Virus record (IMG/VR): IMGVR_UViG_2529292919_000020
DNA: 15,934 nt
Direction: 5' to 3' (one strand)
From: a virus
Lineage: Duplodnaviria; Heunggongvirae; Uroviricota; Caudoviricetes
Shown here: in pieces, positions 1,606 to 6,054 of the stretch
Numbering within the stretch: the stretch's first letter is position 1
Layout: each line of letters opens with the position of its first letter
Made by a program: the position numbers and the translations under genes
Notes under the pieces: generated by a model
What the model saw: only the letters and a program-made list of their open reading frames with translations
Database searches by the model: none
Told to the model about the DNA's origin: nothing

Positions 1606-1794
1606 GTGTTAAGCACAGATCGCTTTATACGTGAAAAAGAATGTCAGCAACTTACAGGCCTGAGCCGCTCATGTCGGTATCGCCTGGAGAAGACTGGACA
1701 ATTCCCATCACGGCGTAAACTCGGCGGTCGTTCCGTTGGCTGGTCTTTATCCGAAGTTCTGGCATGGAAGGACAGCCGCGAGGCAGTTCACTAA
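1606..1794 (+). CDS. alpA: AlpA-family (Xis/Vis-like winged-helix) transcriptional regulator
   Basis: 62-aa ORF with GTG start preceded by a strong Shine-Dalgarno (AAGGGGGAA). The motif ...CQQLTGLSRSCRYRLEKTGQFPSRRKLGGRSVGWSLSEVLAW... matches the AlpA pattern (L-TGLSRST-YRL---G-FP-P-KLG-R-V-W---EV--W). Confidence 0.85.
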   Translation: MLSTDRFIREKECQQLTGLSRSCRYRLEKTGQFPSRRKLGGRSVGWSLSEVLAWKDSREAVH

Positions 1795-2154: not shown

Positions 2155-2343
2155 TCAGTCTGGTTCAGTTCGTTGCCATACCTGCAATGAGCGCTTTTCC
2201 CTGTACTCTTTAAGGAATTGCTCAAGGGCAAAAGCACATGGCGCGAATCTTTCTGATTCATGCTCTATCTTTCTGCGTCGTCTTTTCCGTGTCGGTGATA
2301 ATGTTTTGGTCAATTCTTTATCGGTCATTGTGTTGTCCTGCAT
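2155..2343 (-). CDS. Hypothetical small basic protein (57-62 aa), second gene of the leftward pair
   Basis: ORF-track ORF (MQDNTMTDKELTKTLSPTRKRRRRKIEHESERF...). An AGGA lies 8 nt upstream of the second in-frame ATG, so the true start may be at 2328. It sits 42 bp downstream of the RHH-like ORF on the same strand. No recognisable family. Confidence 0.4.
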   Translation of the reverse strand: MQDNTMTDKELTKTLSPTRKRRRRKIEHESERFAPCAFALEQFLKEYREKRSLQVWQRTEPD

Positions 2344-2385: not shown

Positions 2386-2565
2386 TTATTCCTGCTCTTT
2401 GGCCTTGCGACGCTGGCGGTATTCAACTTCTCGCTTTAATGCTGCTGTTACAAACTGCCCTGTACTTTCACCAGGCATTTTTACCGCCTCAACATTGTTC
2501 ATAACTTCATGCGGAACCCTTGCCGCAACTGTTTGTGATTTTGCGTTTACTGCTTTTGTTGCCAT
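2386..2565 (-). CDS. Ribbon-helix-helix-like DNA-binding protein (59 aa), candidate repressor of the divergent promoter region; not in the supplied ORF track
   Basis: Hand-translated minus-strand ORF: MATKAVNAKSQTVAARVPHEVMNNVEAVKMPGESTGQFVTAALKREVEYRQRRKAKEQE. An SD-like GGGG lies about 10 nt upstream of the ATG. The layout (N-terminal beta strand TVAARVP, helix, G-x-S/T turn, second helix) is typical of Arc/MetJ/CopG RHH proteins. It is 59 aa, so it falls below the apparent 60-aa cutoff of the track. Confidence 0.5.
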   Translation of the reverse strand: MATKAVNAKSQTVAARVPHEVMNNVEAVKMPGESTGQFVTAALKREVEYRQRRKAKEQE

Positions 2566-2613: not shown

Positions 2614-2667
2614 AGTGTTCAACACTTGACGTGTTTAATACCAGGGCTTAAATTGGTGTTCAACACC
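2614..2667. promoter_or_regulatory. Divergent promoter/operator region: two identical 11-bp near-palindromic operators GTGTTCAACAC (2615..2625 and 2656..2666) overlapping back-to-back sigma70-like promoters
   Basis: Rightward promoter: TTGACG (2626..2631), 17 bp, TAAATT (2649..2654). Leftward promoter on the minus strand: TTGAAC (complement of 2658..2663), 17 bp, TATTAA (complement of 2635..2640). The operators are 41 bp apart centre to centre and overlap the -35 elements. The region sits between the minus-strand RHH-like gene and the plus-strand small-ORF/replication operon. Confidence 0.45.
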
Positions 2668-2763
2668 TTACTAATGCAAGGTGCAGAAACGACGAAACCC
2701 GGCAGTGCGCTAACACTAACCGGGCTTCTAACCACCAACGATAGAAAGCGTATCGAGGTAGCT

Positions 2764-2970
2764 ATGAGAAATTATACCAGACACCCGCAAGGGCGGGACT
2801 CGTACAACCTGAATAAATACATCTGGCGTTTTATCGCCCTGAGCACGGCACAACCGCGCGTGATTACCATTGAGGCCACCAGCGAACAGGAAGCGCGTCA
2901 GCAATCTCCTGATGGCTGCGTGATGGTATTCGCTGCCCGTATTCGCCAGGGGGAAACCTATGCACAATAA
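2764..2970 (+). CDS. Small protein (68 aa), possibly of the Icd-like (P4 host cell-division inhibitor) family; family assignment is from memory only
   Basis: In-frame ATG at 2764 with GAGG 6 nt upstream. The track ORF 2569..2970 has earlier ATGs without an RBS. Sequence MRNYTRHPQGRDSYNLNKYIWRFIALSTAQPRVITIEATSEQEARQQ...VFAARIRQGETYAQ. First gene of the rightward operon downstream of the operator region. Confidence 0.5.
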   Translation: MRNYTRHPQGRDSYNLNKYIWRFIALSTAQPRVITIEATSEQEARQQSPDGCVMVFAARIRQGETYAQ

Positions 2971-3196
2971 AACCACACCGGACGCAGCCGCCGAAGCCAT
3001 CAAAACGCTGATGCACGCGCTGATTGATATTTCTGTTATCGCAGACAAGGCGCATAAGCACGCCACCAGCGAAACAGAATATGCCGGGGCTTTCGTTCCT
3101 CACTCACTGGCTCTTATGCAATTTAGTGCTGATATGGCGCTGAATGAGGCAGGCAAAATTCTTACCGCAGATATTCAGGGGGTGCACCATGCATGA
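2960..3196 (+). CDS. Hypothetical protein (78 aa)
   Basis: ATG at 2960 overlaps the upstream gene by 11 nt, with AGGGGGAA as SD. Part of a chain of overlapping small ORFs. No recognisable motif. Confidence 0.5.
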   Translation: MHNKTTPDAAAEAIKTLMHALIDISVIADKAHKHATSETEYAGAFVPHSLALMQFSADMALNEAGKILTADIQGVHHA

Positions 3197-3416
3197 TGAC
3201 CGTTATCTTAAATCAATGAGCCATGCAGAAAACGCACTGACTAACAGTGAATGTTTGAGGCAAATATTTCTTATCTGGCTTGATGGTTTAAGTGATGAGC
3301 CGGAAGATGAGCGTGAGTCTAATCTTGCTGGTGCGTTTATTTCATTACTCGATACGGTAATCGTCGAATTAAATAAAGCGATCGAAATTCACGATAAAAA
3401 AATAAACGCGGAATAA
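3189..3416 (+). CDS. Hypothetical acidic protein (75 aa)
   Basis: ATG at 3189 with AGGGGG SD. Preferred over the track start at 3144, which lacks an RBS. Overlaps the stop of the preceding ORF (3194..3196). Confidence 0.5.
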   Translation: MHDDRYLKSMSHAENALTNSECLRQIFLIWLDGLSDEPEDERESNLAGAFISLLDTVIVELNKAIEIHDKKINAE

Positions 3417-3421
3417 AAACC

Positions 3422-3709
3422 ATGAAAAATAAAAATTCTGGCTTTACTGCCAGCGGCCCCGCTCGGCCTGAAATCCGCCCCGGCGATATTTTCCGGGATA
3501 ACTATGGCGGCACGGTAACGATAAAAGGCGTGGCAGAACGGCGCATCACTTACCGCCGTGATGGCTACGAATATGACTGCGTGATGCCTGTTTATCAGTT
3601 CCGGCGTGATTTCACGCTGGTGGGCCATCGTAAAGCCGTAAATCAGAAACGTGCAGCAAGTCATATCCGCAAAATTCGTGAAATGCTGGTCGCAGGGGGT
3701 AAAAAATGA
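3422..3709 (+). CDS. Hypothetical basic protein (95 aa), translationally coupled to the replication initiator
   Basis: ORF-track ORF. Its stop overlaps the start of the downstream gene in an ATGA arrangement (3706..3709). Confidence 0.55.
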   Translation: MKNKNSGFTASGPARPEIRPGDIFRDNYGGTVTIKGVAERRITYRRDGYEYDCVMPVYQFRRDFTLVGHRKAVNQKRAASHIRKIREMLVAGGKK

Positions 3710-5520
3710 AACTGGCACCGAACGTAAAACAGCAGTTACGCGGCATAAAACACAAAGAAACAGAAGTCATTATTTTTGCGGGTAGTGATGCCTGGTCACA
3801 CGCAAAACAATGGCAGGAACATGACGCGCGTATGGCCGGAGATAATGAGCCTCCTGTGTGGCTTGGGGAGCAGCAGTTATCCGAACTGGATAAGCTGCAA
3901 ATTGTGCCGGAAGGCAGAAAATCCGTGCGCATATTCAGGGCCGGATATCTTGCGCCAGTAATGATAAAGGCGATTGGTCAGAAGCTGGCGGCGGCAGGCG
4001 TACAGGATGCAAATTTTTATCCTGAGGGTATGCACGGCCAGGAGGTGCAGAACTGGCGCGAATATCTGGCCCGTGAGCGCCAGAATCTTTCTGATGGTCT
4101 GGTGATTCAGCTTCCTGTTAAGAAAAAAACAGAAGACAGCGCCGCACCACTGGCGCTTAACCAGATGGGAGCAAGCCAGCGCGGCGAAGTTCTCCTGGCA
4201 CATTATGGCGGTGAACTGGCGATTCATGCCGACTCTGACACTGTTCACCATTACAACGGCGTTGTATGGGAGCCGATTCAGGATAAAGAGTTACAGCGTG
4301 CTATGGCGCAGATTTTCATTGATGCGGAGATCAGCTATTCGCAGAACGCCATTAAATCGGCGGTCGATACCATGAAGTTAAGTTTGCCTGTAATGGGGAA
4401 TACAGCCCGTAACCTGATTGGATTCAGTAACGGGGTATTTGATACCAGAACAGGTAATTTTCGGGAGCATAACAAAAACGACTGGTTGTTAATTGCCAGT
4501 GAATTACCTTTCAGCCCACCAGCAGAGGGGGAAACGCTGGCAACACATGCGCCGAATTTCTGGAAGTGGTTACGCCGCTCGGTGGCAGAGAATGACCGCA
4601 AGACGGATCGCGTGCTGGCTGCATTATTCATGGTGCTGGCGAACCGGTACGACTGGCAGTTATTCATTGAGGTAACAGGTCCAGGGGGAAGTGGTAAAAG
4701 CGTGATGGCGGAGATTTGCACCATGCTGGCGGGTAAGGCCAACACAGTATCGGCAAGCATGAAGGCGCTGGAAGATGCAAGGGAACGCGCGTTAGTGGTT
4801 GGCTTTTCGCTGATTATCATGCCGGATATGACCCGCTACGCTGGTGATGGCGCAGGAATTAAGGCCATTACAGGCGGTGACAAGGTGGCAATCGACCCGA
4901 AGCATAAAGCCCCCTACTCAACACGCATTCAGGCGGTCGTGCTGGCGGTGAACAATAACGCCATGTCATTCAGTGACCGCAGCGGGGGGATCTCACGTCG
5001 TCGGGTGATATTCAATTTTTCGGAGGTTGTACCGGAGAACGAGCGCGACCCCATGCTGGCAGAAAAAATAGAAGGAGAGCTGGCGGTTGTGATTCGCCAT
5101 CTGCTTACTCGTTTTTCTGACCAGGACGAAGCTAAACGCCTGCTGTATGAGCAGCAGAAATCAGAAGAAGCTCTGGTGATAAAACGCGAGGGCGATTCGC
5201 TGGTGGACTTCTGTGGCTATCTCATGTCGTCGGTAATGTGTGATGGTCTGTTAGTGGGTAATGCCGAAATTATTCCGTTCAGTCCGCGCAGGTATCTTTA
5301 TCACGCCTATCTGGCATATATGAGGGCACACGGATTCGGTAAACCTGTAACACTGACGCGCTTCGGTAAAGATATGCCGGGGGCAATGGCGGAATATGGC
5401 AGGGAGTATATAAAACGGAAAACGAAGCACGGTTTGCGTTCAAATGTGACACTGACAGAGGATTCAGAAGACTGGATGCCATCATGTGCATCGGTCACAA
5501 ATGACGACAGCAAAAATTAA
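3706..5520 (+). CDS. Replication initiator (pri-rep) with P4-alpha-like C-terminal SF3 helicase / origin-binding region; N-terminal ~200 aa of unassigned family
   Basis: 604-aa ORF with strong SD (CAGGGGG). Walker A GPGGSGKS, followed by a region resembling the phage/plasmid primase P4-family C-terminal (D5-like) helicase domain. Sits immediately upstream of an iteron array. Confidence 0.85.
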   Translation: MKLAPNVKQQLRGIKHKETEVIIFAGSDAWSHAKQWQEHDARMAGDNEPPVWLGEQQLSELDKLQIVPEGRKSVRIFRAGYLAPVMIKAIGQKLAAAGVQDANFYPEGMHGQEVQNWREYLARERQNLSDGLVIQLPVKKKTEDSAAPLALNQMGASQRGEVLLAHYGGELAIHADSDTVHHYNGVVWEPIQDKELQRAMAQIFIDAEISYSQNAIKSAVDTMKLSLPVMGNTARNLIGFSNGVFDTRTGNFREHNKNDWLLIASELPFSPPAEGETLATHAPNFWKWLRRSVAENDRKTDRVLAALFMVLANRYDWQLFIEVTGPGGSGKSVMAEICTMLAGKANTVSASMKALEDARERALVVGFSLIIMPDMTRYAGDGAGIKAITGGDKVAIDPKHKAPYSTRIQAVVLAVNNNAMSFSDRSGGISRRRVIFNFSEVVPENERDPMLAEKIEGELAVVIRHLLTRFSDQDEAKRLLYEQQKSEEALVIKREGDSLVDFCGYLMSSVMCDGLLVGNAEIIPFSPRRYLYHAYLAYMRAHGFGKPVTLTRFGKDMPGAMAEYGREYIKRKTKHGLRSNVTLTEDSEDWMPSCASVTNDDSKN

Positions 5521-5760: not shown

Positions 5761-5853
5761 AGGGTTAAAATGCAAAAATTTTATTTTATTGCTGTGAGGT
5801 AAAGCCTGTGACAACGAAGCACGCAAAAAAAACCACAATCTCACGCCCTTGAT

Positions 5854-6054
5854 TTGACAGAACACTGGCTGAGGGTGGCGATAAAAATCATCGACCGCAA
5901 CGCGGGAGAAGGGTACGCAAAAGCACATCCCGAACTGATAAGCGCATTCATGACCACGGCGGCGGCAAACTTTGCCACGCTGACAGAACGGGAGATTGCC
6001 GAAGCGGAACAGGTGACAACCATCAACGTTAAAACCGGAGAGCAGACAGCATGA
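5854..6054 (+). CDS. Hypothetical small protein (start uncertain: TTG at 5854 or GTG at 5875)
   Basis: ORF-track ORF. Its stop overlaps the SSB start (ATGA at 6051..6054), suggesting coupling. No convincing RBS and no recognisable motif. Confidence 0.35.
   Translation: MTEHWLRVAIKIIDRNAGEGYAKAHPELISAFMTTAAANFATLTEREIAEAEQVTTINVKTGEQTA

Follow-up and report, generated by a model that had tools for sequence, protein, structure and literature searches.

A conserved chain of four small genes leads into the replication initiator of a capsid-forming phage satellite, with a predicted antisense RNA at its head

The DNA analysed here (the window) is a stretch of 15,934 nucleotides (nt) filed in IMG/VR as the Caudoviricetes record IMGVR_UViG_2529292919_000020, and our subject is a run of four small open reading frames (ORF1 to ORF4, positions 2764 to 3709) that leads into the gene of a replication initiator, rep. 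The initial annotation had described four ORFs of 68-95 amino acids (aa) that are linked by their start and stop codons and run into rep, and its coordinates and overlaps are exact:

2764-2970, plus strand: ORF1, ATG 2764 to TAA 2970, 68 aa
2960-3196, plus strand: ORF2, ATG 2960 to TGA 3196, 78 aa
3189-3416, plus strand: ORF3, ATG 3189 to TAA 3416, 75 aa
3422-3709, plus strand: ORF4, ATG 3422 to TGA 3709, 95 aa
3706-5520, plus strand: rep, ATG 3706, 604 aa

Four small genes ahead of the replication initiator

Overlaps of 11 nt (2960-2970), 8 nt (3189-3196) and 4 nt (ATGA, 3706-3709) link the reading frames, and a G-run resembling a Shine-Dalgarno (SD) sequence lies upstream of all five starts. 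RefSeq has the same four coding sequences in a locus that is 99.2% identical. A longer ORF3 from ATG 3144 was discarded, as it is used neither by RefSeq nor by relatives. According to pairwise Nei-Gojobori comparisons with orthologues of 89-99% nucleotide identity, the pooled ratio of non-synonymous to synonymous changes (pN/pS) is 0.28 for ORF1, 0.28 for ORF2, 0.13 for ORF3 and 0.44 for ORF4, and all four ORFs match a PHROG family. The frames of ORF2 and ORF3 are unbroken in every locus of the same geometry, and of the three long ORFs that lie opposite the chain on the minus strand, two have gained a stop codon in the most divergent of these loci. Poor conservation of the frames across related islands had been named in advance as evidence that would speak against the genes; the frames have held, with low pN/pS and a geometry that recurs in 94 loci. 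The four ORFs are conserved coding genes, which form the early, replication-proximal operon of a capsid-forming phage-inducible chromosomal island (PICI).

The comparative set of 94 loci consists of eight from complete Escherichia coli genomes, five from other species, 80 from IMG/VR and the window itself, and the bulk of the data comes from E. coli-like contigs of IMG/VR. A profile search of genome contigs with an alignment of Icd, the family of ORF1, gave only five loci, its patterns being too strict. Classification of every small ORF in the 94 chains yielded a common frame: an Icd-like gene, zero to five optional cassettes, a penultimate “B slot”, a gap of 5-6 nt, a DUF4222 gene (here ORF4), an ATGA overlap and the initiator. 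Whichever of the three unrelated initiators is present, the succession of Icd-like gene, B slot, DUF4222, ATGA and Rep has been preserved in nearly all 94 loci. The optional cassettes belong to the families A (ORF2), C, E and F or are extra copies of icd. The fast-diverging B slot, which lies directly upstream of the DUF4222 gene in nearly all loci, is occupied by ORF3, by its relatives B2 and B3 (26-47% identity), by a 106-aa protein or occasionally by a C cassette. Among the 413 junctions of these loci, 270 are overlaps of the -4, -8 or -11 type and 80 are gaps of +5 or +6, while an SD-like motif is present at 124 of the 144 distinct junctions, whose consensus is tcaGGgGGtgaaccATG. This recurring geometry exceeds chance.

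The initiators are a RepA-type helicase of about 468 aa, a D5-type primase-helicase of about 582-605 aa and a DUF927 protein of about 707 aa, and they have only the first 130 residues or so in common (41-62% identity; window 3706-4100; phrog_2850). This common N-terminal module always comes after DUF4222. The rep gene of the window (3706-5520) matches D5_N, the DUF5906 superfamily 3 helicase and Pox_D5 (Pfam, TIGR01613), and DUF4222 genes are also found directly upstream of lambda-O-type initiators. Cassettes fuse or duplicate at conserved junctions: a 154-aa protein of the island EcCIEDL933 is a fusion of an ORF2-like A cassette with an E cassette (locus L002, 5002-5466).

ORF2 and ORF3 are, by their search results, narrow orphan proteins. 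ORF2 matches phrog_5146 (E=3e-35) and falls into 231 clusters, of which the named ones among the 120 matches listed come from E. coli, with one from E. albertii, and none has a Pfam domain. Judged by sequence its product looks helical, and since minimal chains of Icd, B, DUF4222 and Rep exist from which ORF2 is missing, it is dispensable. One homologue of 102 aa (P0001) carries an internal tandem duplication of 24 aa. ORF3, which matches phrog_2196, encodes an acidic protein with eight clusters and 14 representatives in 1.84 billion proteins, several of them spurious repeats, and the AlphaFold2 model shows three helices with a predicted local distance difference test score (pLDDT) of 80. The idea that ORF2 and ORF3 are paralogues with a shared AGAF motif was dropped at an hhalign probability of 1%. 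Sensitive profile and structure searches had been proposed for each ORF; those made were sequence and profile searches of ORF1 to ORF4 against the PDB, which returned nothing significant and no profile match for ORF2 or ORF3, and a Foldseek search with the ORF3 model, which returned no fold match.

Could ORF2, ORF3 or both be spacer that happens to stay open between Icd and DUF4222? The very narrow distributions and the lack of Pfam domains and structural relatives are what such spacer would look like. It would hardly account, however, for pN/pS values of 0.28 and 0.13, for PHROG matches of both ORFs and frames that are intact in all loci of the same geometry, for B-slot homologues that preserve length and position at 26-47% identity, or for helices that AlphaFold2 models with confidence in so small a protein, and we regard the proposition as very improbable.

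The window is an E. coli chromosomal island, and in the region of the chain it is 99.2% identical to a locus of strain AST262 that sits between roxA and phoQ. The genes annotated in AST262 are integrase, AlpA-type regulator, YlcI/YnfO, Icd-like protein, two hypothetical proteins, DUF4222 and a DNA primase family protein, followed by SSB, ProQ/FinO, major capsid, prohead protease, portal, connector, HNH, TerS and TerL. Capsid-forming PICIs have been defined as elements of about 15 kb with int, alpA and rep and with their own major capsid, protease, portal, connector, HNH, TerS and TerL (bioRxiv 10.1101/2022.09.08.507074), and the annotation of the roxA-phoQ locus contains this set. Gene set and insertion site of the window are those of the capsid-forming PICI EcCIEDL933 (also CP-933C or O-island 51), for which induction that depends on a helper phage and on alpA, and transfer with helper tails, are established experimentally (bioRxiv 10.1101/2022.09.08.507074). 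The window thus belongs with the capsid-forming PICIs of the EcCIEDL933 family, and the satellite setting that the initial annotation had assumed is borne out. PICIs are common, as the region of the chain is matched by 1,776 of 5,426 complete E. coli genomes.

A predicted antisense RNA and operators at the head of the operon

The following elements are predicted or annotated around the start of the operon:

2386-2565, minus strand: divergent gene of the YlcI/YnfO family (NF041551, E=2e-16)
2615-2625, no strand: operator-like palindrome O1, GTGTTCAACAC, which abuts the -35 hexamer and is centred near -41
2626-2654, plus strand: sigma-70 operon promoter, TTGACG-17-TAAATT (promoter scan)
2656-2666, no strand: operator-like palindrome O2, GTGTTCAACAC, over the predicted transcription start and centred near +1
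2684-2763, minus strand: predicted cis-antisense RNA of about 80 nt, which covers the ribosome-binding site of ORF1
2771-2779, minus strand: extended -10 element, TGGTATAAT, inside codons 3-6 of ORF1 and 7 nt upstream of the predicted RNA start

Comparative analysis shows a structured RNA of about 80 nt opposite the ORF1 leader, with a putative extended -10 element of its own and a terminator-like hairpin. The first clue came from an Rfam E-value search, in which the minus strand at 2691-2763 gave a sub-threshold match to SymR. The 5′ stem-loop of the predicted RNA is complementary to the SD sequence of ORF1 (GAGG, 2755-2758) and its loop to positions 2744-2750, while the 3′ part forms a GC-rich terminator hairpin (about 2695-2728) with a U-rich tail. 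The minimum free energy of the window RNA is -35.1 kcal/mol (z=-4.0). For an alignment of 44 distinct leaders, the RNAalifold consensus has 22 pairs and an energy of -27.0 kcal/mol on the minus strand, as compared with -5.3 kcal/mol on the plus strand, an asymmetry that arises because many G-U pairs of the minus strand are C-A on the plus strand. Pairing is kept in 98.8% of the cells, with double changes at six pairs (45 cells), and the covariation score is 0.225 as compared with 0.113 for shuffles (0/500) and at most 0.094 for slid controls. In one lineage (L043) the terminator hairpin has been swapped for unrelated sequence, and a hairpin is still formed.

The extended -10 element is present as TGnTATGAT, TGnTATAAT or TGnTATAGT in 87 of 88 loci, and a motif scan found TGGTATGAT or TGGTATAAT in 109 of 118 further IMG/VR contigs. 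By a strict test, an Icd-like ORF follows within 8 nt of 92 of the 118 further motif matches, and most of the others are Icd variants. The stem of the 5′ hairpin is invariant and carries 10 to 17 different loops of 7 nt. A covariance model derived from the alignment retrieves the RNA from EcCIEDL933 (E. coli O157), E. ruysiae, Shigella and two Pectobacterium genomes, and in every case an icd-like ORF follows directly. The model has no match at symR of K-12 (E<=10), P4 or P1. A literature search returned no paper describing this antisense RNA, which is previously undescribed.

Because the structure lies between the operon and a divergent minus-strand gene (2386-2565), it might instead be the leader or attenuator of the ylcI/ynfO transcript, or else a bidirectional or protective hairpin of the sense mRNA. 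The terminator with its interrupted U-tract, which a scan missed, and the sense leader, which also folds in part (-28 kcal/mol), would suit these explanations. The structure is kept, however, in islands with unrelated or no annotated minus-strand genes upstream, for example in EcCIEDL933, and megablast homology with islands of different upstream regions starts at about 2686-2698, right beside the 3′ end of the RNA. Moreover, the G-U pairs restrict the fold to the minus strand, and the sense fold is ordinary (z=-1.8). A leader or sense-strand hairpin is in our estimation improbable.

The predicted antisense RNA resembles SymR of K-12 in its arrangement. SymR is likewise a cis-antisense RNA of about 77-80 nt with two hairpins, which is transcribed from a promoter within the 5′ end of its target and covers SD and AUG; symR starts 6 nt inside symE, and the start predicted in the window (about 2763-2766) would coincide with the ATG of ORF1 (2764). 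The targets differ, as SymE has an AbrB fold, whereas the target in the window is Icd-like and the first gene of a long operon. Membership in the SymR family (RF01809) found no support, with scores of 32.8 bits for the window and 36.6 bits for Pectobacterium compared with a gathering threshold of 61, an hhalign probability of 0.1% between the Icd profile and SymE, and a reciprocal model that misses K-12 symR. Aligning window 2684-2790 (minus strand) with 5810-5925 (plus strand) of locus L096 showed that a terminator-hairpin loop, GTGTT(A/G)GCGCAC, is common to the antisense RNA, K-12 SymR and the Pectobacterium copy, by common descent or convergence.

The C4 RNA of Rfam (RF01695) has no match in the window, either at the gathering threshold or at E<=1. 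In three loci that lack the antisense RNA at an icd copy or have a second icd (L012, L043 and L091), C4 lies upstream of icd with 72-78 bits, accompanied by a1b1/isrK in L043 and L091 and by isrK in L012. With either the antisense RNA or C4 at icd, the Icd-like genes of these elements appear to be under RNA control of one type or the other. Some Icd-like proteins of about 154 aa have been given a “long N-terminal extension”. Such a long ORF is probably an RNA gene followed by a short icd, because the extension coincides with Rfam-significant C4 RNA and c4-a1b1/isrK elements (L043, 2931-3135; L091, 4235-4439; L012, 3735-3923), and the same probably applies to the long N-terminal extension reported for the Icd-like protein of the E. 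coli strains ECOR61 and ECOR15 discussed below.

The promoter scan found no further promoter on the plus strand within 2654-5520, and the -35 motif TTGAC of the operon promoter is conserved among otherwise divergent leaders. The two GTGTTCAACAC copies occur together in 13 loci, and all 13 have a YlcI/YnfO gene of the window type, whatever their type of AlpA. Conversely, none of the 24 loci with the window-type AlpA but another YlcI has the pair. This co-occurrence makes the YlcI/YnfO protein a candidate for the regulator that binds these operators and acts on the operon promoter. Control of the chain probably hinges on the antisense RNA and the operators, which the initial annotation had overlooked.

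Icd-like and DUF4222 proteins

The product of ORF1 matches the NCBIfam model NF033153 (Icd-like) with 70.3 bits at a cut-off of 25 (E=1e-19, residues 19-62) and, in BLASTP, the conserved core of P1 Icd with 37% identity over 43 aa (E=1e-7). These alignments show that ORF1 encodes an Icd homologue, as the initial annotation had thought possible. A reading of 133 aa from GTG 2569, which is found in some annotations, was rejected because its start lies upstream of the promoter and it overlaps ylcI. P4 was considered and dismissed as the origin of the PHROG label “transcriptional repressor” for ORF1, which has no similarity to P4 ORF137 or its DNA.

ORF4 matches Pfam PF13973 (DUF4222) with 89.4 bits against a gathering threshold of 27 (E=1e-25), and it is 61% identical to the DUF4222 gene at the same position in the O157:H7 island, which is RgdR (ECs1581). 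The earlier statement that none of the four ORFs could be assigned to a family with confidence therefore holds for the orphans ORF2 and ORF3 but not for ORF4. The structural model of ORF4 consists of a barrel like those of SH3, Tudor and KOW domains, followed by a basic C-terminal helix. SH3/Tudor-like folds are of the kind by which UvrD, CarD and KOW domains contact RNA polymerase. Profile match and modelled fold together show ORF4 to be a DUF4222 protein of the RgdR family with a predicted SH3/Tudor-like fold.

RgdR is a basic protein of 99 aa that activates LEE1, represses motility and binds DNA non-specifically (PMC3378721). Residue 20, part of an RGD motif, determines its activity, and the ED1a variant, in which this residue is changed, is inactive (PMC3378721). 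ORF4 shares with RgdR of EcCIEDL933 the DUF4222 domain, the ATGA overlap with rep, the roxA-phoQ site and Lys-35, which is important for RgdR activity. The RGD motif at residues 20-22 is absent: ORF4 has Pro-20, Gly-21 and Asp-22 (R19-P20-G21-D22) where RgdR has Arg-20, Gly-21 and Asp-22, and its C-terminal helix is of the 95-aa and not of the 99-aa type. For RgdR, so far a virulence regulator, the comparison would mean that its native context is a gene welded to the replication initiator of a satellite and that its fold is SH3/Tudor-like.

Weak tblastn matches of ORF4 in lambdoid phages fall within the annotated ymfM gene of e14 and SfII-type phages, in another reading frame. ORF4 as a homologue of YmfM was discarded, since these matches are out of frame with ymfM and the YmfM protein is unrelated to DUF4222. 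The frame in question is an unannotated ORF:

NC_000913.3, 1204001-1204180 (locus L099, 3502-3681): DUF4222 ORF in e14 of K-12, with an AAGGAGA SD sequence and a TTG start
Locus L098, 2489-2710: orthologue in PhiR29_2, 98% identical in DNA (Pfam DUF4222, E=9.5e-19; hhalign 97% with the ORF4 profile)
Locus L097, about 2501-2659: further copy of the hidden ORF

The K-12 ORF overlaps the start of an O-like replication gene by 11 nt. Seven sites vary in the region of overlap with ymfM, and at six of them the change is synonymous for the DUF4222 frame but non-synonymous for that of ymfM. Pfam has no match for the annotated YmfM frame. A published expression clone of ymfM would include 53 of the 59 codons of the hidden ORF together with its SD sequence, and hence the DUF4222 protein may be the true source of the SfiC division-inhibitor phenotype ascribed to YmfM. 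As the division inhibitor of K-12, ymfM is probably mis-annotated.

A possible gating mechanism, known systems and neighbouring features

In P1, icd overlaps ant1 by ATGA, C4 has target sites on the icd ribosome-binding site and, by blocking translation of icd, also blocks ant, and icd is annotated as “required for expression of ant”. The P1 immI region (c4 RNA, icd, ant1/2) and the chain have much in common: a homologous Icd as first cistron, whose stop codon overlaps the next start, an antisense RNA directed at the ribosome-binding region of icd and, in sister islands, a genuine C4 upstream of icd. They differ in that C4 of P1 is processed from the same strand, whereas the RNA of the window would be encoded in cis on the opposite strand with its own promoter, and in that the cargo is an antirepressor in P1 and a cassette array with DUF4222 and initiator in the window. 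Translational coupling along the chain is plausible, because of its geometry and of the icd-ant precedent. By this analogy, the operon is best seen as a P1-type module of RNA, icd and coupled genes that has been adapted to gate satellite replication and contains a modular array of cassettes.

We propose that in the quiescent island the antisense RNA would pair, loop first, with the ORF1 leader and occlude the SD sequence and AUG of ORF1. Without translation of ORF1 the downstream cistrons would fall silent by translational coupling, and probably also by Rho polarity, because each of them has its start within or beside the stop codon before it; neither the RgdR-like protein nor the initiator would then be expressed. 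Upon helper induction, a burst of sense transcripts from the operator-flanked promoter (2626-2654), triggered through AlpA and/or the release of a YlcI/YnfO-type regulator, would out-titrate the antisense RNA. Translation would then proceed through Icd (division arrest), the accessory cassettes, the B protein, DUF4222 and finally Rep, with order and ratio fixed. Each island lineage would owe its specificity to the hypervariable loop, so that co-resident islands would not cross-repress one another, which would explain how several related islands can coexist in one cell. As a replication switch, an antisense RNA that acts in cis by way of an Icd leader cistron would lend itself to direct tests, and the literature searched does not describe replication silencing in Gram-negative PICIs beyond alpA. 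We give this RNA gating of the c4-icd-ant kind a little better than an even chance.

Several points weigh against it. ORF3 and ORF4 do not overlap but are separated by 5 nt, and each cistron is preceded by an SD-like sequence of its own, so that the chain may not depend on coupling. The antisense RNA is predicted, as are its start site and terminator, and simple scans missed both the promoter of the RNA, which has no -35, and the terminator, with its interrupted U-tract. As the conserved -10 element lies inside coding sequence, its conservation may partly reflect constraint on the protein. Close E. coli relatives dominate the sample of loci and thereby inflate the shuffle-based significance, a bias that is mitigated by the slid controls and the Pectobacterium matches. 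Division-inhibitor activity is known, from an annotation note, for P1 Icd only and is extrapolated to ORF1, and the function of ORF4 is extrapolated from RgdR phenotypes obtained in enterohaemorrhagic E. coli, while ORF4 has PGD in place of RGD.

The same genes might also be a compact array of accessory genes without obligatory coupling, each with its own SD sequence and an independent function, possibly in helper interference, anti-defence or host takeover. The overlaps would then be ordinary compaction as in phages, and the RNA would fine-tune a toxic Icd in the way of a type I toxin-antitoxin system. The SD-like motifs at 124 of 144 distinct junctions are in keeping with such an array, as are the cassettes A, C, E and F, which are freely gained, lost, fused and reshuffled with the junction consensus tcaGGgGGtgaaccATG, a pattern typical for genes with accessory or arms-race roles. 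Growth-arrest loci from the literature, which are triggered by phage accessory proteins, also have Icd-like genes, small ORFs and a primase. Compaction leaves unexplained, however, why the frame is kept in nearly all 94 loci with three unrelated initiators, and the gene downstream of icd in P1 functionally requires the overlap. PADLOC had no match at E<=1 for the seven proteins tested, with a library that covers defence proteins and not anti-defence ones. The accessory array overlaps with RNA gating and does not exclude it; as a full account we think it rather unlikely, though worth keeping in sight.

The growth-arrest loci bear on the first cistron. In ECOR61, growth arrest by a phage accessory protein requires an Icd-like gene, linked small genes and a primase (Silas et al., bioRxiv 10.1101/2023.04.06.535777), and in a P4-type satellite of ECOR15 the genes hit by suppressor insertions were int, AlpA, one Icd-like and one small gene, and the primase (bioRxiv 10.1101/2023.04.06.535777). 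Both, like the chain, lie in an integrated element and combine an Icd-like gene with small ORFs that overlap and with a DNA primase, whereas in ECOR61, compared by description only, two small ORFs precede the Icd-like gene. By analogy, these loci support a growth-arrest role of the Icd cistron in such operons. These loci and the turnover of the middle cassettes are also compatible with the initial idea of helper interference or anti-defence. The left operon of P4 (CI RNA, epsilon, orf151, cnr, alpha) is similar in organization, with an AlpA/Vis-type gene upstream, small ORFs that are chained by overlaps of 8 nt, a small gene right before the primase-helicase initiator and RNA-based immunity at the 5′ end. 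It differs in having no sequence similarity in the ORF137 region, a cnr product that is DUF5375 and not DUF4222, and no match to the covariance model, and the island of the window makes its own capsid.

A more far-reaching combination of two ideas is speculative, and we consider it unlikely. First, the antisense RNA, in which a hypervariable kissing loop sits on an invariant stem, would be an immunity or incompatibility determinant of enterobacterial PICIs, a cis-RNA switch that silences the replication operon through the Icd leader cistron. Second, the DUF4222 proteins (ORF4, RgdR and the hidden ORF of e14) would be one class of Tudor-like factors that are obligatorily co-translated with initiators and are perhaps the real SfiC-type division inhibitors or modulators that bind RNA polymerase. 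If both were true, a published division-inhibitor gene of E. coli would have to be re-assigned and the pleiotropy of RgdR would be explained.

Further upstream lie two genes with family support:

1606-1794, plus strand: alpA, AlpA-family regulator (Pfam Phage_AlpA, E=2.7e-18)
2155-2343, minus strand: gene matching phrog_21027

[quoted passage not shown] A Cys-rich ORF of 255 aa on the plus strand (1847-2614), which RefSeq flags as an incomplete hypothetical or an “icd-like” pseudogene, was considered spurious, as it is antisense to two minus-strand genes with family support. The int-alpA RNA motif of Rfam has no match in the window by Rfam search and is found in a Pectobacterium island (locus L013, 863-928) with 54.7 bits.

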